Origin: a virus
Taxonomy: Duplodnaviria > Heunggongvirae > Uroviricota > Caudoviricetes
DNA length: 64,000 nucleotides
Direction: 5' to 3' (one strand)
IMG/VR virus record: IMGVR_UViG_3300003310_000099
Coordinates: 170,295-234,294 of that record
Below are positions 9,869 through 63,996 of the stretch, piece by piece (within the stretch, counting starts at the first letter, position 1; each line of letters begins with the position of its first letter). Made by a program: the position numbers and the translations under genes. The notes beneath the pieces were generated by a model, which was not told the DNA's origin, did no database searches, and worked only from the letters and a program-made list of their open reading frames with translations.

Positions 9869-9887
9869 ATAGCTTAGCTGTACCAAG
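9869..9887 (+). repeat. Dispersed 19-nt motif, copy 1 (ATAGCTTAGCTGTACCAAG)
   Basis: Exact match to a motif seen 8 times, all on the + strand; supplies the TAG stop of ORF 9684..9872. Confidence 0.9.
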
Positions 9888-9897
9888 GGGATACAGG

Positions 9898-10257
9898 ATG
9901 AACGCAACTCAAATGAAGGCTCATCTACAGGCGTTTAGTAGAACTCTGGATAATAAAAATAAAGACGAGTGGTGGGGAACTATGCGGGATGTTTGGCAGG
10001 ATTTATATCCAAAATTCCTGTCATGGTATAATAGCCACCACAACAAAGTTAAAGCAAAAGAACACAAGCAGAACAAAACGCTTGACGTAACGCTGAATCT
10101 TGAAGAAGCAAATTTAATAATTCAGCTTCTCGAACAAAGTATCAAAACTGGCATTAGCCCCAATGCTTTTGTGTTGAATGGTGAAAAACGACGTGATATT
10201 ATTGCCCGCATCCAACAAACGCCTACTTACTTAAGAGATTCAGGATTAATCCCATGA
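9898..10257 (+). CDS. Hypothetical protein downstream of motif copy 1
   Basis: AAGGGG RBS then ATG at 9898. Confidence 0.65.
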   Translation: MNATQMKAHLQAFSRTLDNKNKDEWWGTMRDVWQDLYPKFLSWYNSHHNKVKAKEHKQNKTLDVTLNLEEANLIIQLLEQSIKTGISPNAFVLNGEKRRDIIARIQQTPTYLRDSGLIP

Positions 10258-10745
10258 AGACCATCTATTCTAACCACCCAATCAATATTCAGGGTAATAG
10301 TATTTTCCTTGCAGGGCCAACCCCTCGCTCAAGGGATGTTAAATCATGGCGTCCAGAAGCTTTAGCCATTCTTGAGAAGCTAGGTTTCAATGGCACGGTC
10401 TACGTCCCTGAATGGGATTATGATGCTCCAAAGATCAGTTATATGGAGCAAGTTGAGTGGGAATACGCACATCTTGAAAACTGTACAAGTATTGTTGTAT
10501 GGGTTCCTCGCAAGCTGGACACAATGCCCGCTTTTACCACCAATGTAGAATTTGGTAGTTACGTTCGTTCTGGTCGCATGGTTTACGGTCGTCCTGATAA
10601 CTCACCCAAGAATGATTATCTAGATTGGCTTTACAACAAGATTACTGGTCGTACACCCCACAATGACCTGTACAAACTGCTTTATGAAGCAATCCCTTAC
10701 AATGAGGCTTGGGGTGGTTCCTATAATTGCTGTGGGAGATTCTAA
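10254..10745 (+). CDS. Nucleoside 2-deoxyribosyltransferase-like protein
   Basis: SIFLAGPTPR..SWR, QVEWE..L, TTNVEFG motifs. Confidence 0.85.
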   Translation: MKTIYSNHPINIQGNSIFLAGPTPRSRDVKSWRPEALAILEKLGFNGTVYVPEWDYDAPKISYMEQVEWEYAHLENCTSIVVWVPRKLDTMPAFTTNVEFGSYVRSGRMVYGRPDNSPKNDYLDWLYNKITGRTPHNDLYKLLYEAIPYNEAWGGSYNCCGRF

Positions 10746-11009
10746 TGGGTTCTCCAGCTAATTGGGTAATCAAACATGTAGTCATGGATGGCGACTGCAT
10801 AATTCATGTTGCTGACACATTGAAGGAAGCTGAGGAATGTAGGGCACTGTACAGGAAGTATGAAATCCCGAAAGATATGCACGGACATAAGTTCAAAGAT
10901 GGTGCGTGTATTTATTGTAATCAGACACACATTAATTATAGCACTACGCCACAAGTAGAACGGTTGCTTTGTAAAGGTTTCAGGTGTCCTTGGTAAAGGA
11001 GGTGCTTAA

Positions 11010-11606
11010 ATGGCACGTTGGATCACTGCTGATTGGCATCTTGGCGAAGATCGTTTTGATTTAATGGGGCGTCCATTTCGGACTATTGACGAAATGATCG
11101 ACACTCTCACTGCCAATCACAACAATCTGGTCTATCCAGATGATGAAGTGTTTGTGGTTGGGGATGTTTGCTATCAGAAGCGTCCTGAATATCTTTGTCG
11201 GGTTGCTGATTTCCACGGCAAGAAGACTTTAATTCGTGGAAATCATGACAGGGTTATTTCAGACGAAGAATTCTTGAAGTATTTTGATAGGGTAATTCCC
11301 GAAGGTTCAGGCATTGACATGGACATTGAAGGTATTCCTTGTTATCTTACTCATTACCCCACTACTTCAAAGCAAGAGCGTTTTAACTTGGTGGGACATG
11401 TGCATGGGGCATATAAATATCAGTTAAACATGCTTAATGTTGGCGTGGACGTGCATCACTTTCGTCCTGTGAATTTGAAAACGATCCCATTCCATTTCAA
11501 AGCAATTTGCGAATACTATGACCAAGATGTTTGGGTTGCCTACAATCCAATTAATGAAATTTATAAAGGATTAAGGGGTAAAAATTCCTCCTATTATTCT
11601 AAATAG
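11010..11606 (+). CDS. Calcineurin-like metallophosphoesterase
   Basis: DWHLG, GD, GNHD, HYP and GHVH motifs; NVGVD. Confidence 0.9.
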   Translation: MARWITADWHLGEDRFDLMGRPFRTIDEMIDTLTANHNNLVYPDDEVFVVGDVCYQKRPEYLCRVADFHGKKTLIRGNHDRVISDEEFLKYFDRVIPEGSGIDMDIEGIPCYLTHYPTTSKQERFNLVGHVHGAYKYQLNMLNVGVDVHHFRPVNLKTIPFHFKAICEYYDQDVWVAYNPINEIYKGLRGKNSSYYSK

Positions 11607-11631
11607 GTTTAGCACATGTTGCTGGGAAGTA

Positions 11632-12480
11632 ATGCGTATAAGAAAATATAAATTTGACTCAGAGTATTTTAAAACAATTGATAGCAATGAAAAAGCCTAT
11701 TGGCTCGGTTTCATTTATGCTGATGGCAATGTATACAAATATACTTTAGGGATTAAGTTGGCTGGATGTGATTTGTCTGTTTTAGAAAAATTCAAACAAG
11801 ACATTTCGGCTAATTGTCCTATAAAGCCAGTTAAGGATAAAGATGCGTATGTGATTAAAATAAATTCTAAAGAACTGATTGCCCAGCTTGCGGTGTTGGG
11901 CGTTACTGCAAATAAGTCCGACAAAATATCATGGCCTCCAATTAAGAAGGAGTTTTACCCAGCATTTATATTGGGATTTTATGATGGTGATGGCTGGATC
12001 ACTGCTAAACATGCTAAAAATCCTGCATGGTTATCTTGGACTGTAGGGTTTGCTTCTTGTTCGCAAAAATTTGTAAGAAGTTTGAGAAAATTGTTTAAGG
12101 AATATGGTTGTGGGTGTGGGTATCATGTTGTTCGTCCGAGTGAAGGTAAAAGAAAAACTGTTTATCAGTTATGTTATTATGGACAGGCGGCTAAACGGGT
12201 TTTAGATCAGATATATTGTGTTGATTTTAACATAAAAAGAAAAAAGGAATGCTATGAAAAGTTTTCCAAATACCTTGAAACTAAATCTGATAAGAAAATT
12301 TCAAAATACATAGGTGTTTCTTTTGACAAAAAATATAAAAAATGGCACAGTAGAATACAACATGGTGGCAGGAGAGTCCTAATCGGATTTTATGAATCAG
12401 AGTTAGAAGCGGTAATGGCTTACAATAAGTTCATTGACAAGCATGGTATTCCAAAGTACAAAAAAAATGAAATGTCATGA
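11632..12480 (+). CDS. Free-standing LAGLIDADG homing endonuclease with C-terminal AP2 domain
   Basis: AYWLGFIYADG and FILGFYDGDG motifs; SKYIGVSF..KW.SRI..IGFY.SE.EA.MAYN AP2 signature. Confidence 0.88.
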   Translation: MRIRKYKFDSEYFKTIDSNEKAYWLGFIYADGNVYKYTLGIKLAGCDLSVLEKFKQDISANCPIKPVKDKDAYVIKINSKELIAQLAVLGVTANKSDKISWPPIKKEFYPAFILGFYDGDGWITAKHAKNPAWLSWTVGFASCSQKFVRSLRKLFKEYGCGCGYHVVRPSEGKRKTVYQLCYYGQAAKRVLDQIYCVDFNIKRKKECYEKFSKYLETKSDKKISKYIGVSFDKKYKKWHSRIQHGGRRVLIGFYESELEAVMAYNKFIDKHGIPKYKKNEMS

Positions 12481-12674
12481 GAAAAAGAAAGATAACTCCG
12501 AAGAATATGCAGAAGGTCTTCAACAAACTTGTTGATTTCCTGAAAGTTAATAATCTCTGTGCCAAAGAGTTCTGCAAAGATTTCAATAAGTTCTTGGATG
12601 ACCGACTTTGCATGGATTTTTTTGGTACAGAGGGGCAGTGCGATCCTAGAGGCGACCATAGGAACGATTAATAT

Positions 12675-13043
12675 ATGAAGATGCTGTTCGGCAAATATAA
12701 AGATAAAGAAATAGAAGACATTCCTCTCGAATATTTGCACTGGTTGGCCAATAATGTTGAGTTAAAAGGTGCTTTGAAATGGTCTGTTTGCAAACACCTT
12801 AAACTGAATGTCGATGACCTTGAGCAACTGCGAACCGATTACAACGCAGTCATTGAAGAGAATAAGGCATTGAAAGAAGAGGTGGCTAAACTACAAAAGC
12901 CTAGTGGTAAGTCTGCCAAGGTAAAGAACAATTTTGATTCTTTGTATAGAAAGCTTGCAATGAAATACCATCCAGATAGGGGTGGTGATGAAATTGCCAT
13001 GAAAGTTGTTAATGAAATATTTGATGAAATAAGGGGACAGTAA
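12675..13043 (+). CDS. Protein with N-terminal DUF3820/ExoX-C-like motif, coiled coil and C-terminal truncated J-domain
   Basis: FGKYKD..IEDIP.EYL.W; YRKLAMKYHPDRGG...MK.VN. Confidence 0.75.
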   Translation: MKMLFGKYKDKEIEDIPLEYLHWLANNVELKGALKWSVCKHLKLNVDDLEQLRTDYNAVIEENKALKEEVAKLQKPSGKSAKVKNNFDSLYRKLAMKYHPDRGGDEIAMKVVNEIFDEIRGQ

Positions 13044-13398
13044 TGACCCTACTAACGATTCTAATGTGGTTGATTTTCATTGGATTTGTTACTCTAGTCG
13101 GATACATGATTCTTCGAGTCGGCAAGTGCCCACGATGTTCTTCTGAAATGAACGGGCATTTGAAAGTTTGTCCGTATTGTAATTTTTGCAGGGTGGAACA
13201 TGACAAAATCAGAATACATTGATAACTTTGTTGTCACCTTTATCTCTGTTTTCACTGCAAAGAACTACGAAGACTATTGCAGTCGTGGTTTGCACAAAGA
13301 GCTTGAAAACCCGCCATTTGAAGACGCTTTCTACTTGGCTGAGAAGACATGGGATAAATTTGAAGCTGGCTGGGCTACCCTTGGAAAGGATAAGTAAT

Positions 13399-13653
13399 AT
13401 GGCTGGCTATCATGTTGCAGAAATAACCCGTGGCGAGTACGGGGAACTCTCCAAAGTCCTTGAAGAAGCCGAAGAGTTAAAAGACGCAATGGAACAGGGC
13501 CAGAAGCTTATGTGCCTCATAGAACTCTCTGATATGCTTGGGGCTATTGAGGGTTATTTAGAGAAACATTATGCAGGCAAAATCACCATGACTGACTTAT
13601 TTAATATGTCCAATGCTACGAGAAACGCATTTGAATCAGGATACAGAAAATGA
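13399..13653 (+). CDS. MazG-like NTP pyrophosphohydrolase-fold protein
   Basis: SKVLEEAEELKDA...ELSDMLGA (EE..E..E..D pattern); AAGGA RBS. Confidence 0.6.
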   Translation: MAGYHVAEITRGEYGELSKVLEEAEELKDAMEQGQKLMCLIELSDMLGAIEGYLEKHYAGKITMTDLFNMSNATRNAFESGYRK

Positions 13654-14261
13654 ATGAAAACATTAAAACAGAATTGGAAGAGTTATTCAAAACTCTAGAT
13701 GTTAAAACAGTGTTCAACAAATTTAAAAAGGTGTTTGAACCATTAGAAGACTTCATCAGCCCATCAAAGGAGACAAAAGTGGAAAACGTAAAGAAAATGC
13801 TAGAAGGCAAGACAATTGCGAAGGCAGAGTTTGAAAGCTACAGTGCCCAAAACGACACCTTAATCCTCAAGTTCACAGATGACACTCATCTCAAGATTGT
13901 GTCAGACCCGAAAAACATCTTTGATGGTCTGGCATTTTTCCAAATAAAGACCAGGACCGTTGAACAACAATATGATGAGGAAATAAAGTGAAAAGAATTG
14001 AACATATGAATAAGGTCAAGGAAATGCTTCATAAAGCTGACCTTAATGGGTTTGAAGAAGGTTATTGGCGATATTTTGGTTGTGGTAATCATCTTTATAT
14101 TTTTGCTGATAACTGTTACGATAAGATAAAAGAGATTGGAAGTCAAAGAATCCACCCAAGAGATATGGCCAAACAAATGTCTGAAGTCACAGACAAATTC
14201 AGAGTTGTGATGGTTGACGTTGAGATAGGTGGCACAAGCGTCTGGCCAGAGGATAAGATAA

Positions 14262-14831
14262 ATGATTGATTATGAAAAAATAGCAGCCGCAGTCTACCAC
14301 TACGAAACCAAGGGTTACAAAGAAATCGAAGTTCCCTGGATAATATCTTTAGATTCAATGCTCATTACCAGGCCAAAAGGGGCAAGACTCTTCAGCACCT
14401 TCGCTGGCGAGTTGGTTGCTTCTGGCGAACAATCCTTCCTTGAAATAAGAAATCAATTAAAGCCTGGCAAGTATCAGTGTGTCACACCTTGTTTTCGTGA
14501 TGAGCAAACCAAGGATGATCTGCACCACCAATATTTCATCAAGAACGAGCTTATATGGGTGTTGGACATTCCGCAATTAGATATTGCAATGGAAAAGCTG
14601 AACATTGTTATTAAGGATGCGCTTCAATTTTTCAAAGGATGTTGGGCATCACGCACGGAACCAAAGTTAGTACACAACCCACTTGATAATACAATAGCTA
14701 ATCAAGACATTGAGATTAATGGTATTGAAGTAGGCTCTTATGGCTATAGGAGCTATGAAGGCTTCCACTGGATTTATGGTACGGGTTGTGCTGAACCACG
14801 GCTGACCCAAGTATTGGAACTATCTTTATGA
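14262..14831 (+). CDS. Stand-alone class II aminoacyl-tRNA synthetase-like catalytic domain
   Basis: Motif 1 GYKEIEVP, motif 2 TPCFRDE..H..YF, IEVGSYG, motif 3 GTGCAEPRL; 189 aa with no anticodon-binding domain. Confidence 0.75.
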   Translation: MIDYEKIAAAVYHYETKGYKEIEVPWIISLDSMLITRPKGARLFSTFAGELVASGEQSFLEIRNQLKPGKYQCVTPCFRDEQTKDDLHHQYFIKNELIWVLDIPQLDIAMEKLNIVIKDALQFFKGCWASRTEPKLVHNPLDNTIANQDIEINGIEVGSYGYRSYEGFHWIYGTGCAEPRLTQVLELSL

Positions 14832-16526: not shown

Positions 16527-17133
16527 TCAAGCAGGTCAAGATATTTTTGTCATAAACTGTCTTAATCATAAGAAAAATGGCATATTTCTGGACTTGGGGT
16601 GCAGTGATCCTATTATCATCAATAACACCTATTTGTTAGAGACGCAGTACGGCTGGAAAGGTCTGTCTGTAGATATTGATAAAACAATGACGGATAAGTA
16701 CGTTAATAGAAACACTCATGTATGGGACTTAGATGCCACAAAATTAGATTTCAATAGTGTTATTGAAATTTGCACAGATAAAATTGATTATCTTTCATTA
16801 GACCTGGAACCAGCTGCTGAGACATTTAACTGCCTGCAAACCATCCCTTTTGACAGAATAGATTTCTCAATCATAACTTATGAACATGATTTCTGGAGAT
16901 ATGGGGACGAATACAGAGATAAGTCCAGGGAATTATTAACCAAACACGGGTATAAAATCATTTGCGCAAATGTACTATCTTTTGATAACATTGTATTTGA
17001 AGACTGGTATTACAATCCTAAGTACATAGATTATAAGAATATAAAGCATTTTGAGAGCGATGGCGAGAAATGGCAAACTATTTTAGATCGGTGTTTAGAC
17101 CACCAGCCAAAATTTGGCTCTGAGGAATCCTAA
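16507..17133 (+). CDS. FkbM-family SAM methyltransferase
   Basis: YSQAGQD, FLDLGC.DP...NNTY.LE...W.G, IDYLSLDLE, ITYEHD, FEDWY. Confidence 0.85.
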   Translation: MTKLSYSQAGQDIFVINCLNHKKNGIFLDLGCSDPIIINNTYLLETQYGWKGLSVDIDKTMTDKYVNRNTHVWDLDATKLDFNSVIEICTDKIDYLSLDLEPAAETFNCLQTIPFDRIDFSIITYEHDFWRYGDEYRDKSRELLTKHGYKIICANVLSFDNIVFEDWYYNPKYIDYKNIKHFESDGEKWQTILDRCLDHQPKFGSEES

Positions 17134-17650
17134 TTATCTCTACTCCAAGATGTTCGAGGGTATATTTCAGGTAGCTTTCTGGGTGAAAAGTTTTTCCTTG
17201 ATAAAAAAACATTTGGTGAGTTAAGTAAACTGAATAGTATTTTTGCATAACTTCATAGGTGCCGAACGCTGTCCAGTCATTGACTCCACCTCTCCAATCT
17301 ACGCCCGTAGGAATATAGACACGATTATTAGACAATTGATAACTTGCCAGGTCTATTGGCTTGTCAAATATGGTATCATAACGCATACGGACATAAACAT
17401 TAAGTCCTAGTGGGGCTTTGATGAAGGCTTGCCACATGTTATGCCACATATTCAAAACACGATGAGGAACATTATCTGGCAAACCTTCATGATAATAGAT
17501 GTTAGATGAATATCCAAATATATCTTTTTTATAGAAGTTTAAATCTGCATTAAGTTCATTATAATGAACTTCTAATGCATCGCCAAAGGTATCTTTATGA
17601 TTTTGTTTATCCCAATTGCGGGTAAATCCGCTATAAATTAAACAGTTCAT
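17078..17650 (-). CDS. Glycan-biosynthesis-associated protein (glycosyltransferase-like)
   Basis: YSGF.R, VRMRYD, GVND..AFG...M..Y, HPE..L motifs; lies in the glycan cluster. Confidence 0.55.
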   Translation of the reverse strand: MNCLIYSGFTRNWDKQNHKDTFGDALEVHYNELNADLNFYKKDIFGYSSNIYYHEGLPDNVPHRVLNMWHNMWQAFIKAPLGLNVYVRMRYDTIFDKPIDLASYQLSNNRVYIPTGVDWRGGVNDWTAFGTYEVMQKYYSVYLTHQMFFYQGKTFHPESYLKYTLEHLGVEIIRIPQSQILAGGLNTDLK

Positions 17651-20859: not shown

Positions 20860-20862
20860 GGT

Positions 20863-26111: not shown

Positions 26112-26130
26112 ATAGCTTAGCTGTACCGAG
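26112..26130 (+). repeat. Dispersed 19-nt motif, copy 2
   Basis: ATAGCTTAGCTGTACCGAG; supplies the stop of ORF 25758..26120. Confidence 0.9.
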
Positions 26131-26144
26131 TGGGTTGCGGCGAC

Positions 26145-26172
26145 TTGACAAACCCATTTTCCGTGGTATATT
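26145..26172 (+). promoter_or_regulatory. Sigma70-type promoter, leaderless
   Basis: TTGACA-N16-TATATT with TGG; ATG 26178 lies 5 nt downstream. Confidence 0.75.
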
Positions 26173-26177: not shown

Positions 26178-26495
26178 ATGTCTACTTACTCTGGCTCTTT
26201 CGACAACAAGAACTGGTATCAGACCTTCAAAGACGGACAGCCGTTCAGTGCTGAACGTTCGTTGAAGGTCCGCAACCATTCCCCTGATGGTTTTGCTTGG
26301 TCCTATGGAGGTAGCGGGCCGAGTCAACTCGCATTGGGTATTCTGTTGGAAGAAACAGATCAGGCAACTGCTGAACGTTTGTACATGGACTTCAAATGGG
26401 CAGTCATTTCTAATTTGCCTGACAAAAACTGGTCACTAACTTCGGAAGAAATCCAAAATTGGCTGAACCAGAAAGGGCGAGCCGTGTCTGAATAG
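26178..26495 (+). CDS. DUF6166-like protein
   Basis: RNHSPDGFAWSYGGSGPSQLALGIL...A..LY.DFK..VI..LP...W; flanked by two motif copies. Confidence 0.8.
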   Translation: MSTYSGSFDNKNWYQTFKDGQPFSAERSLKVRNHSPDGFAWSYGGSGPSQLALGILLEETDQATAERLYMDFKWAVISNLPDKNWSLTSEEIQNWLNQKGRAVSE

Positions 26496-26510
26496 CTTAG
26501 CTGTACCAAG
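26492..26510 (+). repeat. Dispersed 19-nt motif, copy 3
   Basis: ATAGCTTAGCTGTACCAAG; supplies the stop of the DUF6166 gene. Confidence 0.9.
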
Positions 26511-26546
26511 TAAATCGCTACGATCAAAACTAGGAGGGCTAATCAA

Positions 26547-27560
26547 ATGCACGGCATTCGTCACATTACATTGAAGAAGTCCGAGATGCAGGAATTGCAA
26601 GCTATCATGGCCAAGGGCAACACGCTGCTCAAGGAATGTGCTGCCATGATGGATATGACCAGTGGTGAGTTTCGCGGCAAGTTGTTCAACAAGCGTCTTG
26701 ATACGAGCAAGCTTTCTGCTGAACAGCTTCAGAAGCTGAACGACGCTATTCCGTTTATCATGGAAGTTCGCAACAAGTGCGAAACCAAGATTCTAAACGG
26801 TTTTGCGCGTGCAGTTTACAAACAGGCTAGGGCTGCTGCGTCCAATTCCAGTGATCCCAAGAATTCTTTGCTTGAATTCGAGCAAGAGGCTACCCTTGGT
26901 GTTTTGGAGTGTATCTACGGGTACACCGACACCAGTTTCCAGTTCACTACTTATGTGTGGCGAGCAATGCGCCGCAACATCAATAAGAACATCAATCGGC
27001 TGAATCCGTTCTGTCCTTTGACGAATGAAGCCTTGGGGTTGTCGCAAGATTTTGATAAGGCCAAGACCGAATTGAGCCTCAAGATGAATCGTTTCGTCAA
27101 CACTGAGGAAGTCATTACGGTTATGGGCCTTACGGAAGAACAGAAGGAGATTCTGTTAGCCGCCAATAACAAGGTGATTAACGAGGTTAAGGCTGCTCCA
27201 GGTGCTGAGGTTGATTGCAATGATTACACGTCTCAGCGACGTGGCATCGACAGTGACCTTGAAGAAGTCAACGTCATTCGCAAGGATGTGCGGCAATCAC
27301 TCAAGGATGCTGAATTGAGTGATATTGAGTTGCATCTTCTCCTGGGGGAAATGTTCCCTTACACTGGTTGGAAGGAAGACATTGCCTCCAAGTTCATCAA
27401 TCCACGGACTGGCAAGCGTTATACCAGAGAAGTCACTGGTATCATTGAACGTGCCAAGGATAAGGTTAAGAGGGCAATGAAGTCGCCGCCTTCCTCACCA
27501 AAGGTCAACCCGATGGTGGATCAGATTTTCGATGAAATGAGCGGTAAGCTCGCAAACTAA
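26547..27560 (+). CDS. Sigma70-family RNA polymerase sigma factor-like protein
   Basis: Region 2-like EQEATLGVLECIYGY...FQFTTYVWRAMRRNI; C-terminal region 4-like L..AELSDIE...TRE..GIIERAK.K; AGGAGG RBS. Confidence 0.7.
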   Translation: MHGIRHITLKKSEMQELQAIMAKGNTLLKECAAMMDMTSGEFRGKLFNKRLDTSKLSAEQLQKLNDAIPFIMEVRNKCETKILNGFARAVYKQARAAASNSSDPKNSLLEFEQEATLGVLECIYGYTDTSFQFTTYVWRAMRRNINKNINRLNPFCPLTNEALGLSQDFDKAKTELSLKMNRFVNTEEVITVMGLTEEQKEILLAANNKVINEVKAAPGAEVDCNDYTSQRRGIDSDLEEVNVIRKDVRQSLKDAELSDIELHLLLGEMFPYTGWKEDIASKFINPRTGKRYTREVTGIIERAKDKVKRAMKSPPSSPKVNPMVDQIFDEMSGKLAN

Positions 27561-28217: not shown

Positions 28218-28236
28218 ATAGCTTAGCTGTACCGAG
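28218..28236 (+). repeat. Dispersed 19-nt motif, copy 4
   Basis: ATAGCTTAGCTGTACCGAG; supplies the stop of ORF 28029..28226; followed by a GGATGTT/AACATCC hairpin. Confidence 0.9.
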
Positions 28237-28267
28237 GATGTTAGCCAACATCCGAAAGGTGCCAATT

Positions 28268-29344
28268 ATGTACGATACCCAATACGAAAAGCTGTTCTTC
28301 CCTATCGACGGGAATCCTCCTTCTGCCGAAGATCGTCGTGCTTATCTTGATCCAACGAACCCAAATTCGCCCTATTTTGGGTTCGTTGGCAATAAGCGTG
28401 CAGTCGATAAGCTAATTCGTATCGACTTTGATGCTCTTGGTCGCTACAACCACTGCTGCAATGACCTGTCAGTTGCTTTCATCGGGCAAGCTGGTTGCGG
28501 TAAGACTGAACTGGCACGGCGTCATGCTAAGGCAAACAAGCTGCCTTACATCGAACTTTCTCCTAAGTCCATCAATACCTGTCACGATATCTTGAAGGCT
28601 ATTGGTCGGGCTTGTGAGGAACATAACATCCCGTTGGTCGATCTTGTCCGTGAAAACAACTTCTGGATTCCGCCCATTAATGTTTTCATTGACGAAGTTC
28701 ATGCTCTGGCACCGCCCATTGTCCAGGGTTTGCTCAAGGCCACCGAACACAATGACGCAATGCTTGTAACCGAAAAAGGTTACACTGCGGATTGCAAGCG
28801 TGTTCACTGGATGATCGCCACTACGGATCGTGGCAAGCTGTTCGATGCTTTCGACACTCGATTCTCGAAAGTGATTATCAACCTTTACACCAAGGAAGAA
28901 GTTGCACAAATTGTGCAGTTTAACAACCCTGATTGGGATTTCGATGTTTGTCGTCTGGTTGCTCATTACTGTGGAAGGATTCCGCGTGAAGCCTTGGCTT
29001 TCGCCAGGGAAATGCAGCTAGAACACAACATGAACCCTCATCTTTCTTGGCGAGAAGTTGGTCGTCGTGTTGCCAATGACAATGAGATTGATGAATTTGG
29101 CATGACTTACAAGAGGCTTGCTATCCTCAAAGCACTTGGGCAAGGTCCAATTGCCGAGAAACGTATGCCGCTTGTGGCTGGTGTTAAGGCAGAAGAACTG
29201 AATAAGTTCATCATGCCGTGGCTGCTTGCAGAAACGATGGATCAGGCAGCTTTGATTGGCGTTGGCAATAAGGGATATTGCCTGACGGATGCTGGTATCG
29301 AAGAGTTGAAGATCAGGGGTATTCCTTACAAGGAAGCAGCATGA
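28268..29344 (+). CDS. RuvB-like AAA+ ATPase
   Basis: Walker A GQAGCGKT, Walker B FIDEVH, ATTDRGKL..AF.TRF, GRIPREA, C-terminal winged-helix-like region. Confidence 0.8.
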   Translation: MYDTQYEKLFFPIDGNPPSAEDRRAYLDPTNPNSPYFGFVGNKRAVDKLIRIDFDALGRYNHCCNDLSVAFIGQAGCGKTELARRHAKANKLPYIELSPKSINTCHDILKAIGRACEEHNIPLVDLVRENNFWIPPINVFIDEVHALAPPIVQGLLKATEHNDAMLVTEKGYTADCKRVHWMIATTDRGKLFDAFDTRFSKVIINLYTKEEVAQIVQFNNPDWDFDVCRLVAHYCGRIPREALAFAREMQLEHNMNPHLSWREVGRRVANDNEIDEFGMTYKRLAILKALGQGPIAEKRMPLVAGVKAEELNKFIMPWLLAETMDQAALIGVGNKGYCLTDAGIEELKIRGIPYKEAA

Positions 29345-29348
29345 CCCA

Positions 29349-29407
29349 TACATAATGTAGGTTATTTTGTGAAAATAACCTACATTATGTAACTATATAA
29401 GGGCATG
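29349..29407 (+). promoter_or_regulatory. 20-bp perfect hairpin plus ACTATATA element before an HNH gene
   Basis: TACATAATGTAGGTTATTTT-GTG-AAAATAACCTACATTATGTA, then ACTATATA-AGGGC-ATG. Confidence 0.7.
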
Positions 29408-29998
29408 AATAAATATTCCAAGACTCCTAAGCATGATTTAACTGGCAAAAGATTTAATTATTTGGTTGTTGATAAAATGGCTGTAACTAGTAAGTCAACG
29501 GATAAATCATGGAGAGCCATATGCAGATGCGATTGTGGTAGAATTGCCGACGTTAATACAAATTATTTGATGAGAGGATTACGCAAAACATGTGGCAACA
29601 AAGAGTGCCAATATCATCGACAAGATTATAATAATGCAGGGAAAAATAATGTATGCTTCGCTGGGTATGAAGGTATACATGGCTCAAAATGGTCTGGCAT
29701 TAGAGCGGCTGCAAAAAGAAGAGGACTAGCTTTTGAAGTCACTATAAAAGAAGCATGGGAATTATTTGAAAGGCAAAATAGAAAATGCGCATTAACTGAT
29801 TTGGATATTGGTTTTGGTAAAACTTATACTGAAGGCAATACTGCCTCGTTGGATCGGATTGATAGCAGTAAAGGTTATATTTTGGGAAACATACAATGGG
29901 TCCACAAAGATGTAAATAAAATGAAAATGGATATATCAATGCCAAGGTTTTTAGAATTATGCAGATTGGTGGTGACAAATGAACAAAAAACAAATTAG
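29405..29998 (+). CDS. HNH-like homing endonuclease
   Basis: DLTGKRFNYL.V, CRCDCG, KCALT, ASLDRIDSSKGY..GNIQWVHKDVN.MK. Confidence 0.85.
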   Translation: MNKYSKTPKHDLTGKRFNYLVVDKMAVTSKSTDKSWRAICRCDCGRIADVNTNYLMRGLRKTCGNKECQYHRQDYNNAGKNNVCFAGYEGIHGSKWSGIRAAAKRRGLAFEVTIKEAWELFERQNRKCALTDLDIGFGKTYTEGNTASLDRIDSSKGYILGNIQWVHKDVNKMKMDISMPRFLELCRLVVTNEQKTN

Positions 29999-30296
29999 GA
30001 ACAATTTCGTTCAAGCAGTGTTTGAACGAGATGGGCACAAATGCGTTATGTGTGGTCGAAAACATACACTTAATGCGCATCATATTATTGATAGACACGA
30101 AATTATAAATGGAGGATACGTCAAGGAAAACGGCATAACCCTCTGCGCAGGCGAAGACAAGGATAATTGTCACTGGAAAGCTGAACAATATCATGCAACT
30201 GGCATCGCTTACCCTGGCTATAGTCCAGAAGAATTATTTAAAAGGATTGGTTCAAGTTTAGAGTTGGCAACGGAGGCTTCTCATGTGCTATGTTAA
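29979..30296 (+). CDS. Small HNH endonuclease
   Basis: VFERDGHKCVMCG...LNAHHI...NGITLC...CH. Confidence 0.85.
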   Translation: MNKKQIRNNFVQAVFERDGHKCVMCGRKHTLNAHHIIDRHEIINGGYVKENGITLCAGEDKDNCHWKAEQYHATGIAYPGYSPEELFKRIGSSLELATEASHVLC

Positions 30297-30488
30297 GATC
30301 GTCCTTGACGAAGGGAAGCCACTCTATGGTACTGTCACCGATTTGATTCATGAACAAGGTCCAGCATGGCCAGCTTTATATGAAGTCAACTTGGGTACTG
30401 AGGAAAAACCTGAATTGAAACTTTACTACGAGTATGGCATGGGTTATGAACTATTTTTCATCCCTAAAGAGGATTACCAAGTGAACTT

Positions 30489-48152: not shown

Positions 48153-48171
48153 ATAGCTTAGCTGTACCGAG
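48153..48171 (+). repeat. Dispersed 19-nt motif, copy 5
   Basis: ATAGCTTAGCTGTACCGAG. Confidence 0.9.
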
Positions 48172-48357
48172 GAAATTGAAAATGGCGAAATCGAATGGTC
48201 CAAGTGACGCAAGTTTTGCAGTAGCAATGTTAATGTTTGGAGTAATCGGGGCTTTAATTGGATTCGGCACTCAGGGTACTTTACAAGGTGCCTGCTTGGG
48301 TGCAGGGGTTGGGGCATTGGTGCCAGTTGTACTTTTAATTTTTAGTGGGATGCCTTG

Positions 48358-48376
48358 AAAGCTTAGCTGTACCGAG
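48358..48376 (+). repeat. Dispersed 19-nt motif, copy 6 (upstream of rIIB)
   Basis: AAAGCTTAGCTGTACCGAG, abutting the stop of 48176..48358. Confidence 0.9.
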
Positions 48377-48414
48377 TGATTTGTTCTGAAACCTACAAAC
48401 AAGGGAGAAGTTAA

Positions 48415-49641: not shown

Positions 49642-49660
49642 ATACCTTAGCTGTACCTAG
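49642..49660 (+). repeat. Dispersed 19-nt motif, copy 7 (variant, upstream of rIIA)
   Basis: ATACCTTAGCTGTACCTAG; core CTTAGCTGTACC intact. Confidence 0.85.
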
Positions 49661-49707
49661 TAATTTGTTGACGAGTGAGAACAACTGTTTAACTGGAGTA
49701 AATAAAC

Positions 49708-51825: not shown

Positions 51826-51856
51826 TATGCGTGATGACATGGCGAAAATTAAATAT

Positions 51857-57200: not shown

Positions 57201-59507
57201 AACACGATTGTTACCGTTCTCACCAAAGACGAGAAAGATTAATGAAACTCAGCAGATTAATGCCTGAACATGCCGTATCCCCCAAGCGACTTTCCCTCGT
57301 CCGACTCGATTGCTTTGTCCAATGGCTTAAAAAGAATAAGCCAGAAGTAATCAAAGAAGCAGGAAAGTCTCTTGGTATCAAGGAACTCCATCAGGCTTTT
57401 GACGATCTTGGAGTAGGTACGGAACTTTATCGCCCGTGAATAGATACTTTTGCCGTAAGTGCCTGAAAATAAACAACTTAGTGATTTTGGTGAATAGATA
57501 CATGAATAGATCAGACTGTCCAGACTTTGACGATGACAAGTATGAGGAAATTCTTACATGGGCTAAGGCGGAAGTAATCTATGATGATGTTTTTGTAAAT
57601 GGTAAGGGGGAGAGGTTTGTTCGTCCAGAGCGTGGTTACTGGACGTTGCATTGGGAACATGGATTTATTGGTTTTAATACTCTTGCCAAGCAAGATGAAA
57701 AAGTGGCACGCATGGCTGCTGCGATGTTTATTTATTTATGGTGTAATGGTATTATGGCATCTATCGCTGATTCATTAGCGATATTGTATGCGAGGGCTTA
57801 TGTACGATCAACCCAATACTCGGAAGCAACTCCAGAAAAAGCAAGCACAACTGCAAAAGCAGATGGCTGAGCTTGAAAAAGAATTAAAAGCCATTGATCC
57901 TGACCCGATCAAAGAAGTAGCTCACGCCATTCATAGAACAATGTGTCGTAAAAGGCATGACGACGATTGTTCTTTTTATTATGATAATTGGGATAACCCA
58001 AGTGGGGAACGCCAAAAGTTCGTTAAAAAAGCTATTGAAATGTTGAAGTGTGCAGATAAAAACAAGGTTTTGGACATTTTAGACATTTTAGGAGAATAAA
58101 ATGGAGTTAGAACCTGGACAGAAATGTGCCCGTTGCACTCGTCTTCTGGACGGCGGTTATACAACCATTTACAATGAAAAAATGGATGCTATTAAGGAGA
58201 TTATTTGTACTATTTGCAATACTGTTGAATACATGGATGATTACAAGAAGGATGGCATCATTACGACAAAGATTATGATGGAAGCGTCGATGGCTAAGTA
58301 TTATTTTGAGGAAACTGACCTTAGCCGTTTGCGTCCCGAATGTCGTGAATTCTTCATGCAGAATAAAGTGCCATTGCTCCAAATCGCCAATGATGTGGTA
58401 GAAATTCACAAGTTGGTGGATGAATTTGAAGATAAGCATTGGCTTCCATATATCAAAAAGTATTGGAATGATACGAATGAGCGTGGTCATATCGCTGATT
58501 CAAGGAATTGCACTATTATGATGTGGGGGTGTGCTGGGCGTGTACTCATTACTGCTGAGCAGCCTGGCAGTAGTATTACTATGATTTTCAGTGATTATGT
58601 TGCTACTGAGGAAGATATCAAGAAGTATGGTGATATGTTCAAGCAACGGGGTGGCATTCAAGGTATCACTGCCAAGAAGGAAGACGCTATCTTCATCATG
58701 AAGGAACTGAATAAGATGAAGAAAATTAAGTTCCATCCCAAGGAAAGTGTAACAATGGCGGGGTTATGATTCTAGATTTGCATATAGGCAATAAAACCGT
58801 GAAGATTACAAAAGATATGAAGCTGGCAATGGCTCGCTATTATCTCAAGCCTTGCGAAGATCATTTGCAGGCTGTTAAAAAGTTAGCTGAAAAGGCTGGA
58901 ATGACTTTCTCTGCATTGCCATCTGAAGGACAGTTTAGGTTTGAATTCTATGTCAAGCGGGTTGGGCATTTGAGTAATTGTGTTATCGAATGCAACGTGG
59001 ACAATTTTCTTGATGGTGGTTATAAGATGGTATTTGCACCATGTCTTTGTGGAGATGAATACTAATGGGGATGGACGCAAAAGCTAATGTGTTTTATGGT
59101 TATAAGCAAGATGTAATTTGTCAGGATGATGAAGGTGACTATCTTCCTATGCCTGATGGCATTAATATTGTCAGGCAATGCGATTCCCATTATATGGCAG
59201 TTAAGCAAACTAATCAAAGGTTTGATTGGGACTACGGTATCCAAGATTTGAAGCTAGATTCCATGCAGAATCCTAATTTGATTGCTTGGAAGGCATTGCT
59301 GAAACAGGGGTGCGATGCTTTGGGGCTGGAATTCAAGGAAGAATATTGCGGCTGGTTCGTAGTTTGCGATTATAGATAAAAATTTTGTGAACCTTTTTGC
59401 TGTTTCATTCGTCTATTATTATGGAAGTGATGCATCATTCCATGAGGATGCGCCGTAGTGCGGTCCTCGACCAAGTAAATTTTTTTTATTGGCAAAGGAG
59501 AATTTTT

Positions 59508-60014
59508 ATGAATCAGTTAGTAGCATCATCTCGTAATGGTTTGACCCCTCGTAGAGACGACATTTTTGCCCCATTTGAATCATTTTTTAATCAAGTTTTC
59601 GATGAAATGTGGGGCGATTTCAGTGGTCTTAAGTCCAATGCCCGTAAGGGTTTCCCTGTTTTAGACGTTATTGAAGACAATGGTAAGTACATAGTTGAGG
59701 CATGTGTTCCTGGTGCAAGCGGTGAGAATTTGTCTGTGGAGATAGAGCCAGCTAAGGAAACTGATGTAACGAAGACAGCCAGAATTTTGAGGATTTCTGG
59801 ACGTTTGGATCAGACCCATCAATATTCTGATAAGGCTCAGTATTACAAGAAGGAACTTCGTAGAAGCTCATTTGAGCGAGCGATGTATTTGCCAGATTAT
59901 GTTCAAGGAGAGCCAGAGGCTACTCTTAAAAATGGCATGTTGAAATTGGTATGGGACGTTCCAGAATTGAAGCCACCTGAAAAGAAAACAGTAGCCATTA
60001 AGTGTTTAGATTAA
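59508..60014 (+). CDS. Small heat-shock protein (Hsp20)
   Basis: P.LDVIE, VPG, LRISG, EL...SFER...LP.......A.LKNG.L; AAGGAG RBS. Confidence 0.92.
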   Translation: MNQLVASSRNGLTPRRDDIFAPFESFFNQVFDEMWGDFSGLKSNARKGFPVLDVIEDNGKYIVEACVPGASGENLSVEIEPAKETDVTKTARILRISGRLDQTHQYSDKAQYYKKELRRSSFERAMYLPDYVQGEPEATLKNGMLKLVWDVPELKPPEKKTVAIKCLD

Positions 60015-60021
60015 ATCATTT

Positions 60022-60053
60022 GTAATGCCCCATAGCTTCCTATGGGGCATTAC
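60022..60053 (+). terminator. 14-bp hairpin after hsp20
   Basis: GTAATGCCCCATAG/CTATGGGGCATTAC; weak U tract, followed by ACTATTATA and a small ORF. Confidence 0.6.
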
Positions 60054-60212
60054 TATTATAAAGCATGTTAAAACTATTCCTTGCAGGTGCGGTTCTATTT
60101 TATATGTTTCTTTTTTGGCTATGTAGGCCAAAAAGGATTAAGGTTCCGTGTTGCCGCAGAATCTATCCCCAAATGAGTTGTACTAATGACGAATTGGATA
60201 GGGAAGTAAAAA

Positions 60213-60662
60213 TTGATAACAATATACACTGATGGTTCCGCTTGGCCTAATCCTGGTCCTGGCGGTTGGGCTGCTATTATCGACGGTAAAGAAATTTTTG
60301 GTTCCGAGAAACAGACTACGAATAACCGTATGGAAATTACGGCAGTCCTGCGTAGTCTTGAAACACTCCCACATGATTCAGACGTTAAAATATACTCAGA
60401 CAGTCAATATGTCGTCAATGGCATAGGGTCTTGGGTAGGTGGCAAACCATTCAAGGAAGGTTGGATGGTTGGTTGGCAAAAACGTGGTTGGACCCGTAGA
60501 GAAGGCGAATTGCAAAACGCTGATTTGTGGAAAGAAATTTATTCACTTGTAAAATTGTACAGTAGCGTTGAACTTAGATGGATTCGTGGTCATGACGACG
60601 ATGAATTAAATGAAAGATGTGATAAATTAGCATTAAAAGCGAGGATGAGTAATGGACAGTGA
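60213..60662 (+). CDS. rnhA: Ribonuclease HI
   Basis: IYTDGS..NPGPGGW, TTNNRME.TA, SDSQYV, N.DLW, W.RGH...NERCD.LA. Confidence 0.95.
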   Translation: MITIYTDGSAWPNPGPGGWAAIIDGKEIFGSEKQTTNNRMEITAVLRSLETLPHDSDVKIYSDSQYVVNGIGSWVGGKPFKEGWMVGWQKRGWTRREGELQNADLWKEIYSLVKLYSSVELRWIRGHDDDELNERCDKLALKARMSNGQ

Positions 60663-61338
60663 CATTAGATGGATTTTATGGAGAATCCAAAATCTTAAAG
60701 AGATGAATTCACCAAATCGTTTGCCAACCTATCGTAATATTTGGCAAGGCTGCTATGATGTGTGGCATTGTGAGCAAGATCGTATTGATTCTGTTGAAAT
60801 ACCAAAAGCCAAAATGAAGGCAGCAGAGGAAGGCGGCTTCATTAAAAGCGAGATAGTAAAGATGGGTAAATTCGATCAAGTAGTTTATTCACTAACCGAG
60901 TTAGGCGAGAAAACCTTGAGGGAAAACAATGAACAAGGAACTTGAGAAGCAGTTGCAAGAAAGATTTCCTAAGCAATTCAGGGATTTGTACGGGGATATG
61001 CGGGAAACCTGTATGCATTGGGGCTGTACAAATGGTAGCGGCTGGTACGGGATCATTGAGCAAGCTTGTTCTCAGATACAGGAAGAACTTGACGCACATC
61101 CTGAGCTAGATTTCAAGTGGTTGCAGATCAAGGAAAAATTTGGGCAATTGGTATTGAACGGAAGTGGTGGCAACGAAAGGATTTACGAGATAATCAAAAA
61201 ATTCCAGCAAAAGTCACTGGAAGTGTGCGAGATTTGCTCTACAGATGAAGGCAACATCACTACGAAGGGTTCATGGATCAGAACGCTTTGCGATAGTTGC
61301 AGGGCGACTAGGGCTAGGGAAGAATCCTAGTTGGTTAC

Positions 61339-61366
61339 TTTACAAACCGTGGATTTGTACTATCAT
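61339..61366 (+). promoter_or_regulatory. Sigma70-type promoter
   Basis: TTTACA-N16-TATCAT preceded by TTGTAC; GAGGAG RBS and ATG at about 61383. Confidence 0.65.
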
Positions 61367-61732
61367 CTTAGAGGAGACAGCAATGCTACTCGCAAAAAAG
61401 AACGCACGGTACTATCTGACGGAGCAGCGAGACGAGTGTGAACGTTGGTTCAGGTGTGTCAAGAGTATGGAGACTTATTCGGAGGTAGTCTACATTACTC
61501 CGAGAATGGCCAAAGAGTTATTGGATACAAGGAAGACAAGAAGGAATCTGCGGGTAGTAGGGCCATCTGACTTAAAGCTGGCAGGGACGCATTATAATGT
61601 AGCAATTAGTTTTTCTGGTAATTTGATAGAAGGCCAGCAAATACTAGAAAACATAATTGAAACTAGAAAATCAACAGAAGTTTTAGTTACTTTCAATTTG
61701 TCCGATAGACTAATTTTTTAGGAGAGATTACT

Positions 61733-62137
61733 GTGGAAACGAACGGCGAGCGTTTTGAGTGGAAGCCAGGATTCAGCCTTACGAAGTATGGAAGCATCTT
61801 TACTCTTAATTGCAATCAAGAGTTCGCTCAAAGGTTTAGGAATGTCCTGCGCGATTGTGGTGCTAATGAACCCACAATTAACAATTTGGCCGAGGATTTC
61901 AAATATTGTTTGGAATCCAATGAAGAGAGTGTGGACCCCGAATCGCATGATTTCATGCTGTCCAAGTTCGGGCATGTCTATCTGCTGACGTGCAAGCGGG
62001 AATTCATGCAAAGGCTCAATGCCGTTTTGCAGAATTTCTTGGTGACAAATCGTGTCTCGCCAGCGATTTTCTCTTTCTCCCAACAACTTGACGGCTATCT
62101 GCTGAACAAGTTCCAAAAAGCCCATACCGATTACTAA
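61733..62137 (+). CDS. Hypothetical protein with two tandem ~60-aa repeats
   Basis: FSLTKYGSIFTLNCNQEFAQRFRNVL versus FMLSKFGHVYLLTCKREFMQRLNAVL. Confidence 0.65.
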   Translation: METNGERFEWKPGFSLTKYGSIFTLNCNQEFAQRFRNVLRDCGANEPTINNLAEDFKYCLESNEESVDPESHDFMLSKFGHVYLLTCKREFMQRLNAVLQNFLVTNRVSPAIFSFSQQLDGYLLNKFQKAHTDY

Positions 62138-62144
62138 GAAGTTT

Positions 62145-62178
62145 ATGATAAGACCCCTGAAAAGGGGTCTTATCATTT
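62145..62178 (+). terminator. Rho-independent terminator
   Basis: ATGATAAGACCCCT-GAAA-AGGGGTCTTATCAT-TT. Confidence 0.75.
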
Positions 62179-62552
62179 AAGGAGCAATTTATGCCGAAGA
62201 AAGCTAAAGCTGAACCAAAGAAAATTGACGTGTTCAAACTCAATTATTATGTAACCAATAATGGTGATGGCTCAGCTAGTGTCCGTTTTTGTGAATCAAA
62301 AGAAAAAGCAGAAAAACTAGACGAAGAACAGGATGAAGGTTGGGGGGAGTCGTCTGCCAGCGATTTTGAACTCAAAATCGAAAATGGTGAAATTTATTGC
62401 CGTGCTTATGACCATGCCAAGCACAAGTATGATTGGCATAAACTAGAAAAGGGGACTCGAAATGAAGGCACATGAACTGACTCGCATGAAGACTTTCCCA
62501 AAGTTCCGCTTGAAAAATGGTAGGGTTGTGTGGGATAATGCGAATTAAAAGA

Positions 62553-62581
62553 TGGTCATTTACTATGTTAAGTAATGACCA
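62553..62581 (+). promoter_or_regulatory. Hairpin sequestering the HNH start codon
   Basis: TGGTCAT(T)TACT-ATGTTA-AGTAATGACCA; the ATG at 62575 is paired; ACTAT element in the 5' arm and loop. Confidence 0.6.
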
Positions 62582-63102
62582 AAAGTGAGAAAACAAAACT
62601 TCGACGTAAGACAAGAGCCGAAAATAATAAATGTGTTGTTTGTGGCACAGATTGGCGCGGAAGCAGTGTCACTTGTGAAAAATGTTTAGTTAAACTAAGA
62701 GAAAAAAACAAAATTAATAGAAGGAAGACAGTAGAAGAACGTAGACTTATTGAAGGTGTATGTGCTTATTGTGGGTCGGAATGGCAAGGTAAAACGATAA
62801 AATGCGAAAAATGTTTGCGGCAAGACACCAACCATTGTGCAAATAAGAAAAAAATTGTGTTTGAACATTACGGAAATAAGTGTGAATGTTGTGGCGAGAA
62901 CAACACCAAATTTTTAACTATAGATCATATTAACAATGATGGTAAGTTTTTTCGTAAAATTAAGCCTTACCATTATATTATAAAAAATAATTTTCCTAGT
63001 GACATAAGACTGTTGTGTTGGAATTGTAATTGCGGTCGGGCTAAGAATAATGGAGTTTGCCCACATAAGCAACAATCATTCCCTCCGTTCGTTTTCGTTT
63101 AA
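62575..63102 (+). CDS. HNH homing endonuclease with Zn-finger repeats
   Basis: CxxC repeats; YG.KC.CCGE....FLTIDHINNDG...LLCWNCN. Confidence 0.88.
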   Translation: MTKSEKTKLRRKTRAENNKCVVCGTDWRGSSVTCEKCLVKLREKNKINRRKTVEERRLIEGVCAYCGSEWQGKTIKCEKCLRQDTNHCANKKKIVFEHYGNKCECCGENNTKFLTIDHINNDGKFFRKIKPYHYIIKNNFPSDIRLLCWNCNCGRAKNNGVCPHKQQSFPPFVFV

Positions 63103-63112
63103 GGAATAAATT

Positions 63113-63448
63113 ATGTGTATTATACCGAAATTTGTCAGTAATGAAGTAGCAGTCAAGTTAGCAGAGGCAAAGCAGCTTATTGAAAATGGCTGGTGTCAGC
63201 ATCTATTTGCAATTCAGCAAGATAAAGAACGTTTCAATTACTGTGTAGTTGGAGCAATGTATGCGACCTTAGATAGAGGTGAAGTATTTGATAAGATGGT
63301 CAATGCCTTCATCAATGCTAATGGGCTTCCATCCTCAGATTACATGATGGGCAAGACAACCAATATCACTAGCTGGAACGATGATAAAAATCGCACCAAA
63401 GAAGAAGTTCTAGCTGCATTTGACAAGGCGATAAATTATGTTGGATAA
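63113..63448 (+). CDS. DUF6197-like protein
   Basis: A..LI..GWCQ, YC.VGA, I..WND...RT.EEVLAAFDKA. Confidence 0.7.
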   Translation: MCIIPKFVSNEVAVKLAEAKQLIENGWCQHLFAIQQDKERFNYCVVGAMYATLDRGEVFDKMVNAFINANGLPSSDYMMGKTTNITSWNDDKNRTKEEVLAAFDKAINYVG

Positions 63449-63986
63449 ACTAAAAGAAGCAATCCAGAAATTACCAGAGCTTTTGCAAGACCCAAATAAC
63501 TTTGATTCTTTGATCGTTAATAGGCGTAAACCACACACTTATAGAGTGTTTACGCATTTTAACGGTTATCGTATTTGTTTGCATAAATTTGATGTTTGTG
63601 ATAGGCACGAAGCGTTCCTCCACCCACATCCCTGGCCTGGCGCTTTTGCTATCTTACTTGGTAGCTATGAAATGGAAGTTGGGTATTCTGTATCTCGTAC
63701 AGAAAAACCTAATCATGTATTAAAAGTGGTATTGCTAGAAGGTAGTAGATACGAGATTACCAGTCCATTAACCTGGCATTCGGTCACGCCACTTGAGCCG
63801 ACTTATACGGTCATGGTTAATGGCGAACCTTGGGACGCTGAGACTGCCCATACAGACGTGCGGACCACTAAGGGCAAAGACTTGGATAGGATGGAGCCAG
63901 ATAAATTACTGCACCACCTGAAATCATTTAGGTTGCTGCTTCCTTTGCATGTTTGCCCAAAGTGCGGGGAAGGAGATAAAGCTTAG
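63438..63986 (+). CDS. Cupin-fold protein
   Basis: LHPHPWP....L.G.YE...WHSV. Confidence 0.65.
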   Translation: MLDKLKEAIQKLPELLQDPNNFDSLIVNRRKPHTYRVFTHFNGYRICLHKFDVCDRHEAFLHPHPWPGAFAILLGSYEMEVGYSVSRTEKPNHVLKVVLLEGSRYEITSPLTWHSVTPLEPTYTVMVNGEPWDAETAHTDVRTTKGKDLDRMEPDKLLHHLKSFRLLLPLHVCPKCGEGDKA

Positions 63987-63996
63987 CTGTACCGAG
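63978..63996 (+). repeat. Dispersed 19-nt motif, copy 8
   Basis: AAAGCTTAGCTGTACCGAG; supplies the stop of 63438..63986. Confidence 0.9.

Follow-up and report, generated by a model that had tools for sequence, protein, structure and literature searches.

The late promoter read by T4 gp55 is TATAAATA, and leaderless mRNAs, exemplified by lambda cI transcribed from PRM, are common in Actinobacteria and Deinococcus. As to the largest phages (~0.6 Mb), we know of no experimental work on how their genes are scheduled. PeSL cassettes have been described in the T4-type phages RB49/phi1, PST/T4 and nt-1/KVP40 (PMC2839356; PMC4122927), and in phiEco32 each middle or late promoter is made up of one element, AATGTA (centre at −11.5), which is read by gp36, a phage sigma, together with the host core polymerase (PMC12276001). 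The element described here was found in a 64,000-nucleotide (nt) stretch of an uncultured tailed phage (the window; bases 170295-234294 of the 373,404-bp virus record IMGVR_UViG_3300003310_000099), as eight copies of a short motif at gene junctions.

Like PeSL, it is a short repeated regulatory motif placed before most small accessory open reading frames (ORFs) of hyperplastic regions, the junctions of indels and replacements between related phages fall on it (14 of 31 edges in a dense array), and ~13 copies are built as a composite of a hairpin (CAGGGTYCGCCCACCCTG), 6-12 nt and the motif. However, PeSL consists of a sigma70-type early promoter with an integral stem-loop, whereas the present element is neither sigma70-like nor provided with a −35 region, carries a hairpin in a minority of copies, is far more invariant over its 20 nt, and would be leaderless in about one-quarter of copies by the predicted start site. 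With the phiEco32 gp36 and T4 gp55 promoters it shares a single element in the −10 region, the lack of a −35 element, and a setting of phage sigmas with no phage polymerase found. The TGTA common to the phiEco32 element and the motif is a lead and not a test, and the present element is longer, lies ~3 nt further upstream (TGTA at −15 to −12) and occurs in more than 100 copies. Likewise, it resembles the promoters of T7-like and phiKZ/AR9 polymerases in being near-invariant, private to the phage and different between related phages, but no such polymerase gene was found in the record or in a complete relative, and the conserved block stops at −6, short of the start site. As in leaderless mRNAs, a start codon would stand at the predicted +1 without a Shine-Dalgarno sequence; unlike the single case of lambda cI, this is systematic in the promoter class (27 of 113 copies) and recurs in four relatives. 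The element is not a PeSL, since it has no sigma70-type hexamers; it resembles PeSL in genomic role and, in its likely mechanism, a phage-sigma single-element promoter, while being a member of neither class.

A scan of the window with CTTAGCTGTACCNAG returned exact matches at 9873, 26116, 26496, 28222, 48157, 48362, 49646 and 63982, all on the + strand and where a preliminary description of the window had placed them (its coordinates are the core start minus 4). The chance expectation is 0.25, none of 100 shuffles reached eight, and allowing up to two mismatches added no match in the window. The consensus given in that description stood in its core and not in its margins: the leading ATAG is not constant (AAAG at 48358 and 63978, ATAC at 49642), and the R after ACC is not strict, because copy 49646 has T there. 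In the window the core is preceded by AWAS and followed by N-A-G-T/G. When the scan was extended to the whole 373-kb record, as had been suggested, the eight repeats proved to belong to a group of near-identical signals of 20 bases, numbering at least 113, with 111 on the + strand and 2 on the − strand. On the + strand the 12-nt core is exact in 96 copies and has a single mismatch in 15, against one of each kind on the − strand; most of the mismatches are C12 to T. Two-mismatch hits (4 on +, 12 on −) displayed no + excess, and the motif therefore has no degenerate tail. Copies are sparse up to 244 kb of the record; at 244-325 kb one occurs per 200-1500 bp, amounting to ~90 copies, all at gene junctions, among genes of ~120 amino acids (aa). 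In the densest part of this array (290-325 kb) the G+C content climbs to 45-50%, as compared to ~40% for the remaining genome. The structural modules (326-373 kb and 0-30 kb of the record) contained no copies.

With the first C of the core taken as position 1, a weight matrix built from the 113 copies revealed a conserved 20-nt block, AWAS-CTTAGCTGTAC-C-NAGT (~33 bits), in which position 12 alone shows appreciable variation; upstream of the block there is no conservation, and no −35 element is visible. Of the 113 copies, 101 have a pyrimidine at position 21 and 105 have a purine at position 22. In 27 copies an ATG opening an ORF of at least 35 aa stands exactly at position 22, without a Shine-Dalgarno sequence and with GAG 6 nt upstream of the ATG, and in ~60 copies a G at position 22 is followed by a CA-rich leader of 15-30 nt, GGAG and ATG. 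The 5′ end of a tRNA-Met gene (record 124488) falls on position 22 of its copy, and two further tRNAs begin at positions 24 and 27. Because the Y21/R22 rule, the ATG-at-22 copies and the tRNA 5′ end converge on position 22, we infer from this spacing that transcription starts there, at a purine 10 nt past the core. Given this start, AGCTGTAC would span −18 to −11 and the whole block −25 to −6. The earlier impression that the motif is not sigma70-like was thus correct, as AGCTGTAC-C-NAGT is unlike TTGACA/TATAAT and no conservation is seen above −25. From these sequence features, the motif is very probably a promoter.

The same arrangement is found in related genomes. LR756511.1, an uncultured phage of 595 kb and the sole relative in the phage collection, has ~270 proteins in common with this phage and broad synteny. 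The exact 12-mer is not enriched in LR756511, and its most over-represented 12-mer in a k-mer census is TAAAGCTGTACT; AGCTGTAC occurs 57 times on the + and 77 times on the − strand, versus 9 expected, with the same 10-nt spacing to the pyrimidine/purine step and to ATGs lacking a Shine-Dalgarno sequence. Between 0.7 and 19 kb its copies lie on the + strand and from 19 to 105 kb on the − strand, following gene orientation, and the blocks homologous to these two segments are co-oriented in the present phage. The orientation of the copies flips with the genes, and motif direction therefore tracks transcription across the inversion.

Three metagenomic contigs extend the comparison: L105 (85% nt identity) carries 16 copies of the identical motif in 6.7 kb, L106 carries 29 copies in 12.5 kb, all CTTAGTTGTACC (C6 to T in 29/29), and L108 carries ~30 copies of YTWAGCTGTACY in 15 kb. 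The Y21/R22 rule is followed by 12/15, 25/30 and 28/34 copies of L105, L106 and L108, respectively, and ATG stands at position 22 in 2, 6 and 11 copies. In 5/5 lineages the motif or its lineage variant precedes the orthologs of a 337-aa sigma factor and of an AAA ATPase. Common to every lineage is AGYTGTAC (AG(C/T)TGTAC), with lineage-specific flanks (AWAS-CTT upstream and C-NAGT downstream in this phage). Within a lineage these flanks shift together, which is what co-evolution of all copies with a single reader would produce. A −10-like hexamer, TACnnA, agrees with the motif in this phage, in L105 and L106 and in the array of LR756511; it was rejected since position 14 is not conserved in L108. 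Beyond these genomes, the exact motif gave 34 single scattered matches in IMG/VR, i.e. chance level, and a jumbo contig among them (355 kb) is not enriched. A search for related loci seeded with the AAA ATPase gave no match, and there was no mention of the motif in the literature searched, queries with AGCTGTAC and LR756511 likewise returning no relevant result.

The surroundings of the copies were examined for terminators and hairpins. At least nine copies are located 9-21 nt past strong hairpin and T-run terminators, so that the next gene needs its own promoter, and many copies overlap the closing part of the preceding ORF without any terminator between the two. The hairpins reported downstream of several window copies are present in the sequence and are not general: the leaders of 45 leadered copies fold weakly, mostly at 0 to −2 kcal/mol, which rules out a downstream hairpin as part of the module, and two of the named hairpins have their 5′ arm upstream of the predicted start site. 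A 5′-terminal stem-loop (GUAA...UUAC) was likewise discarded as support for the start site, with the 5′ end paired in 5/45 leaders vs 25% of shuffles. Upstream of the motif, the conserved hairpin CAGGGTYCGCCCACCCTG precedes ~13 array copies (record 306-322 kb) by 6-12 nt in a PeSL-like composite, and most copies have neither this hairpin nor a canonical terminator (the latter seen at ~9 copies). At record 318297 what follows the CAGGGTYCGCCCACCCTG hairpin is a shortened motif, CTTA, with a Shine-Dalgarno sequence after it.

The preliminary description had proposed an early promoter read by a phage RNA polymerase, possibly packaged in the virion. No such polymerase was detected in the record or in the complete 595-kb relative. 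PF00940 (T7-like polymerase) gave nothing over the cut-off in either, the control genomes being without this family and so giving no measure of sensitivity, and PF00562 and PF00623 (beta/beta′-like subunits) were absent from both, while the controls matched in 14/14 genomes. A DFDGD-type catalytic motif was found in neither, except in one 172-aa ORF, and the T7 motif-B pattern was missing from the long ORFs of both; the largest unassigned ORFs gave no polymerase signal in Pfam, PHROGs and PDB sequence searches. Conversely, four sigma-family genes are present, all conserved in LR756511: one of 159 aa with regions 2 and 4 (record 16864-17343), one of 110 aa with region 2 only and a gp55-like architecture (record 96335-96667, − strand), one of 275 aa with regions 2 and 4 (record 157512-158339), and the 337-aa product of window ORF 26547. 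The last gave no Pfam match itself and a weak PHROG match (phrog_15865), but its ortholog in the relative reaches the cut-off for Sigma70_r2 (PF04542), 13/24 homologs match that family, and its AlphaFold model (pLDDT 78) matches full-length sigma-A chains with probability 1.0; the earlier label of a sigma-like factor thus applies to a divergent member of the sigma70 family. Since the motif precedes its gene in every lineage examined, this sigma appears to belong to the motif regulon, and is not obviously the reader. A tblastn search revealed no sequence similarity of these sigmas to other phage sigmas. In combination, the lack of a detectable phage polymerase and the four conserved sigma genes make host core polymerase with a phage sigma likelier as the reader than a phage RNA polymerase, an assignment that we hold with moderate confidence.

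The alternative that best withstands these results is that the promoter is read by an unrecognised, divergent phage-encoded RNA polymerase, possibly delivered with the virion. The near-invariant 20-nt block, exact in its core in 96 copies, resembles T7-type polymerase-promoter pairs, and the specificity shifts in concert through whole lineages, as with C6 to T in 29/29 L106 copies; moreover, several large conserved proteins have no match to a family or solved structure, and the record of this phage is incomplete. The negative family and motif searches above, covering the complete relative as well, argue against it, as do the end of conservation at −6, which leaves the initiation region variable, unlike in T7-type promoters, and the heavy use of host core polymerase implied by four sigma genes. 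Such a polymerase is accordingly regarded as improbable, albeit a serious minority option.

Considerably less probable is a signal acting at the RNA level, either an endoribonuclease cut 10 nt downstream or a translation signal with NAG as a weak Shine-Dalgarno sequence. The strand lock and the fixed ATG distance are equally compatible with such a signal, and the GAG 6 nt before the ATG in the ATG-at-22 class and the many copies overlapping an upstream ORF end without an intervening terminator speak for it. Still, transcripts begun upstream would seldom reach copies directly past strong intrinsic terminators, and the copies preceding tRNAs have no translational role, which excludes a purely translational function. 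The motif also lacks a hairpin of the type used by known sequence-specific RNA endonucleases, and in L108 the NAGT flank is not conserved and ATG is still found at position 22 in 11/34 copies, which argues against a Shine-Dalgarno role.

The motif had further been suggested to double as a recombination junction for gene cassettes. This idea was supported in the dense array outside the window and, one junction apart, not within the window itself. In blastn comparisons of the array with L105 or L106, 14/31 internal homology-block edges lie on the motif in both genomes, defined as within −8 to +20 of a copy in each, a zone that covers 5.7% of array positions. At these 14 edges a block starts 3-8 nt ahead of the motif's first C or stops 9-17 nt past it, with equal offset in the two genomes. 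The upstream flank of L105 copy 1703 matches that of copy 305802 of this phage, and its downstream flank matches that of copy 306484, so that some junctions, such as this one, look as an exchange between two copies would leave them. A cassette at record 293.4 kb is found on the opposite side of the DUF932 gene in L106 and LR756511. In the window, 1 of ~5 indel junctions with L101/L102 (83-89% identity) falls on the motif, at 26117; a 1.1-kb insertion at 29345-30481 and three other junctions are without it. This insertion, absent from L101, L103 and LR756511, comprises three genes (197, 105 and 69 aa) between the AAA ATPase and an ArdC-like gene, with no flanking motif copies. A pure recombination or mobile-cassette site without promoter function (a site-specific recombinase or homing target) would account for blocks that start and stop on the motif and for the shifted 293.4-kb cassette, but is very unlikely, as it leaves unexplained why start codons and a tRNA 5′ end stand at a fixed distance of 10 nt, why the Y/R rule holds and why copies are placed after terminators, and does not fit the stable presence of the motif in five lineages ahead of conserved core genes (rIIA, rIIB, AAA ATPase, sigma) or the sparse-region indels that mostly lack it.

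The explanation we favour, with some but not high confidence, is therefore a phage-specific promoter that lacks a −35 element, recruits host core polymerase through a phage sigma, and serves also as a patch of homology for cassettes. Under this explanation a clade of uncultured phages of ~600 kb would have a phage-specific class of transcription units, with the motif as their promoter. The recognised block would extend from −25 to −6, with the universal core at −18 to −11 and the lineage-specific flanks around it, and transcription would start at the purine 10 nt after the core. In approximately one-quarter of copies the start base would be the A of the start codon, giving a leaderless mRNA; in most others it would be the G of a short, unstructured, CA-rich leader ending in a GGAG Shine-Dalgarno sequence, and in three it would lie 0-5 nt before a tRNA. 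The reader would be the core RNA polymerase of the host in association with a phage sigma, and a plausible cascade would run from host sigma70 to the 159-aa phage sigma, by way of a TTGACA-type promoter, and on to the motif regulon including the 26547 sigma. Nearly each small gene of the array has its own copy, and the motif could potentially act as a homology patch for deletion, insertion and reordering of cassettes.

Several points weigh against this explanation. Near-invariance across 20 nt is more typical of promoters of single-subunit polymerases than of sigma promoters, and the two sigmas with region 4 would normally require a −35 element; the assignment of the motif to any particular sigma is inferential. 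The polymerase inventory of this phage is incomplete (probably 373 of ~597 kb), though the complete relative is also negative. Pfam profiles and motif patterns could miss a strongly diverged polymerase of the crAss-like or YonO-like kind, and three conserved proteins (1070, 1583 and 1877 aa) had no assignable fold in family and PDB sequence searches. The predicted start site derives from spacing, and among credible translation starts there is one exception that precedes position 22, the copy at record 296521, whose sole plausible ATG is at position 14. With regard to recombination, the window comparison with L101/L102 is largely negative, as described above. Nearly all gene boundaries of the array carry the motif, so that a share of the edges would fall on it even if it mediated no recombination, and a 20-nt stretch is short as a substrate for homologous recombination.

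Within the window, the first copy (9869-9888, + strand as are all eight; ATAG-CTTAGCTGTACC-AAGG) has a predicted start at ~9894-9895 and is followed by a 119-aa ORF without family match (ATG 9898, +). From copy 2 (26112-26131) transcription would start at 26137, and homology to L102 begins exactly here (26117). Between this copy and copy 3 lies the DUF6166 gene (26178-26495, +; PF19663, E 4e-27). Copy 3 (26492-26511), with a predicted start at 26517, a 30-nt leader and a GGAGG Shine-Dalgarno sequence before ATG 26547, precedes the divergent sigma70-family gene (26547-27560, +; 337 aa), which has the motif upstream in all five lineages examined. Copy 4 (28218-28237; predicted start 28243) precedes the AAA ATPase gene, which runs from ATG 28268 to 29344. 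Copy 5 (48153-48172; predicted start 48178) would leave a 4-nt leader before ATG 48182 of a 58-aa ORF; copy 6 (48358-48377; predicted start 48383) and copy 7 (49642-49661; predicted start 49667) stand before rIIB (ATG 48415) and rIIA (ATG 49708), matched in PHROGs with E 3e-66 and 2e-112, respectively. The last copy (63978-63997) has its predicted start site and a 97-aa gene just past the window end. The gene labels of the preliminary description (rIIB, rIIA, DUF6166, an ATPase and a sigma-like factor), its two single genes bracketed by copies (26178-26495 and 48182-48358) and its count of a motif TAG serving as the stop of the upstream ORF (5/8 copies) were all reproduced.

Ordinary promoters are also present. 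A sigma70-type promoter at 26145-26172 (+), with TTGACA, a 16-nt spacer and TATATT after TGG, ends 5 nt before the DUF6166 ATG (26178), in tandem with motif copy 2; like tandems occur at record 245403 and 252651. TTGACA-17-TATTAT lies ~100 nt before the 159-aa sigma gene, with TTGACA at the equivalent spot in the relative, and TTGACA-16-TGgTATAGT is found at record 155038. Because such canonical promoters exist, the host probably uses these and the motif appears to form a separate class. The sigma70-type promoters, one of them directly downstream of copy 26116, are better candidates than the motif for the earliest class, to which the preliminary description had assigned the motif. A near-consensus family of this type (window 26145-26172; record 245421, 252669, 155038 and 192308) has a conserved spacer, with TTCGTGG before the −10; three of its members directly follow a motif copy in tandem, and LR756511 has two similar promoters. 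ECF-type (GAAC-N16-CGTC) and T4-late (TATAAATA) patterns were tried as further promoter classes and dropped, as the exact patterns were not enriched over shuffles.

The record from which the window was taken is classed as a 'provirus' by IMG/VR. Since the products of two of its genes are identical to proteins encoded on a 596,617-bp contig, and relatives measure 590-623 kb, the 373-kb record has probably been cut in error from a phage genome of ~597 kb. Traits reminiscent of T4 include rIIA/rIIB, gp6-like baseplate wedge proteins and the sigma with region 2 only. ARAGORN returned 58 tRNA genes in the record, and one tRNA with anticodon CTA, which would read TAG, lies at record 167507-167581, 2.7 kb before the window start. 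The long ORFs of the record stay intact under code 11, and genome-wide TAG recoding is therefore unlikely, yet many TAG stops come from the motif.

In the array, the only two − strand copies (record 321933 and 324262) point against the other copies; both have the conserved sequence GAGTTTAGGTTGRAA downstream and lead into + strand terminators in reverse complement, and they may be antisense or small-RNA promoters. At record 325130-325200, directly before the last copy at the array end, a 17-bp perfect inverted repeat contains a half-motif (ATAGCTTAGTGCTAATC). The DUF932 (PF06067) gene of the array (record 302932-303921) is much more widely distributed than the remainder of the array, with thousands of homologs at 60-70% identity on phage, plasmid and bacterial contigs. 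Unusual accessory genes of the record encode a protein with PARP catalytic and WGR domains (159616-161205), a CCA-adding/poly(A) polymerase family protein (332642-334159, −), a Ro60-like vWA protein (28860-30368), a T4 Rnl1-like RNA ligase within the motif array whose start is leaderless (313895-314989) and a protein with a weak protein-kinase-like match (69242-70918). A 1052-aa protein (344114-347272) is split by an intein with a LAGLIDADG endonuclease, and sequence searches gave no identification of its extein.

The motif provides a testable regulon map of more than 100 transcription units, with the start site predicted to the base. Four candidate sigmas are short-listed, and the specificity variants of the sister lineages could be used to find the reader by covariation or swapping; if validated, the element could be used as a compact orthogonal promoter-sigma pair. 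The leaderless class bears on translation in the host, and gene callers that require a Shine-Dalgarno sequence will mis-start such genes. The organisation of the accessory array would be explained as one promoter and one gene per cassette, and the sequence-level evidence for the motif at cassette exchange points extends the PeSL idea from T4-type to huge phages. As a tentative and rather doubtful generalisation, the ~600-kb clade may run most of its accessory genome from one 20-bp promoter without a −35 element that also drives cassette turnover as a recombination patch; its reader, a private sigma or a new kind of polymerase, would co-evolve with the 100+ copies (CTTAGCTGTACC, CTTAGTTGTACC, TAAAGCTGTACT), and one-quarter of the messages as well as a tRNA would start on their first functional base.

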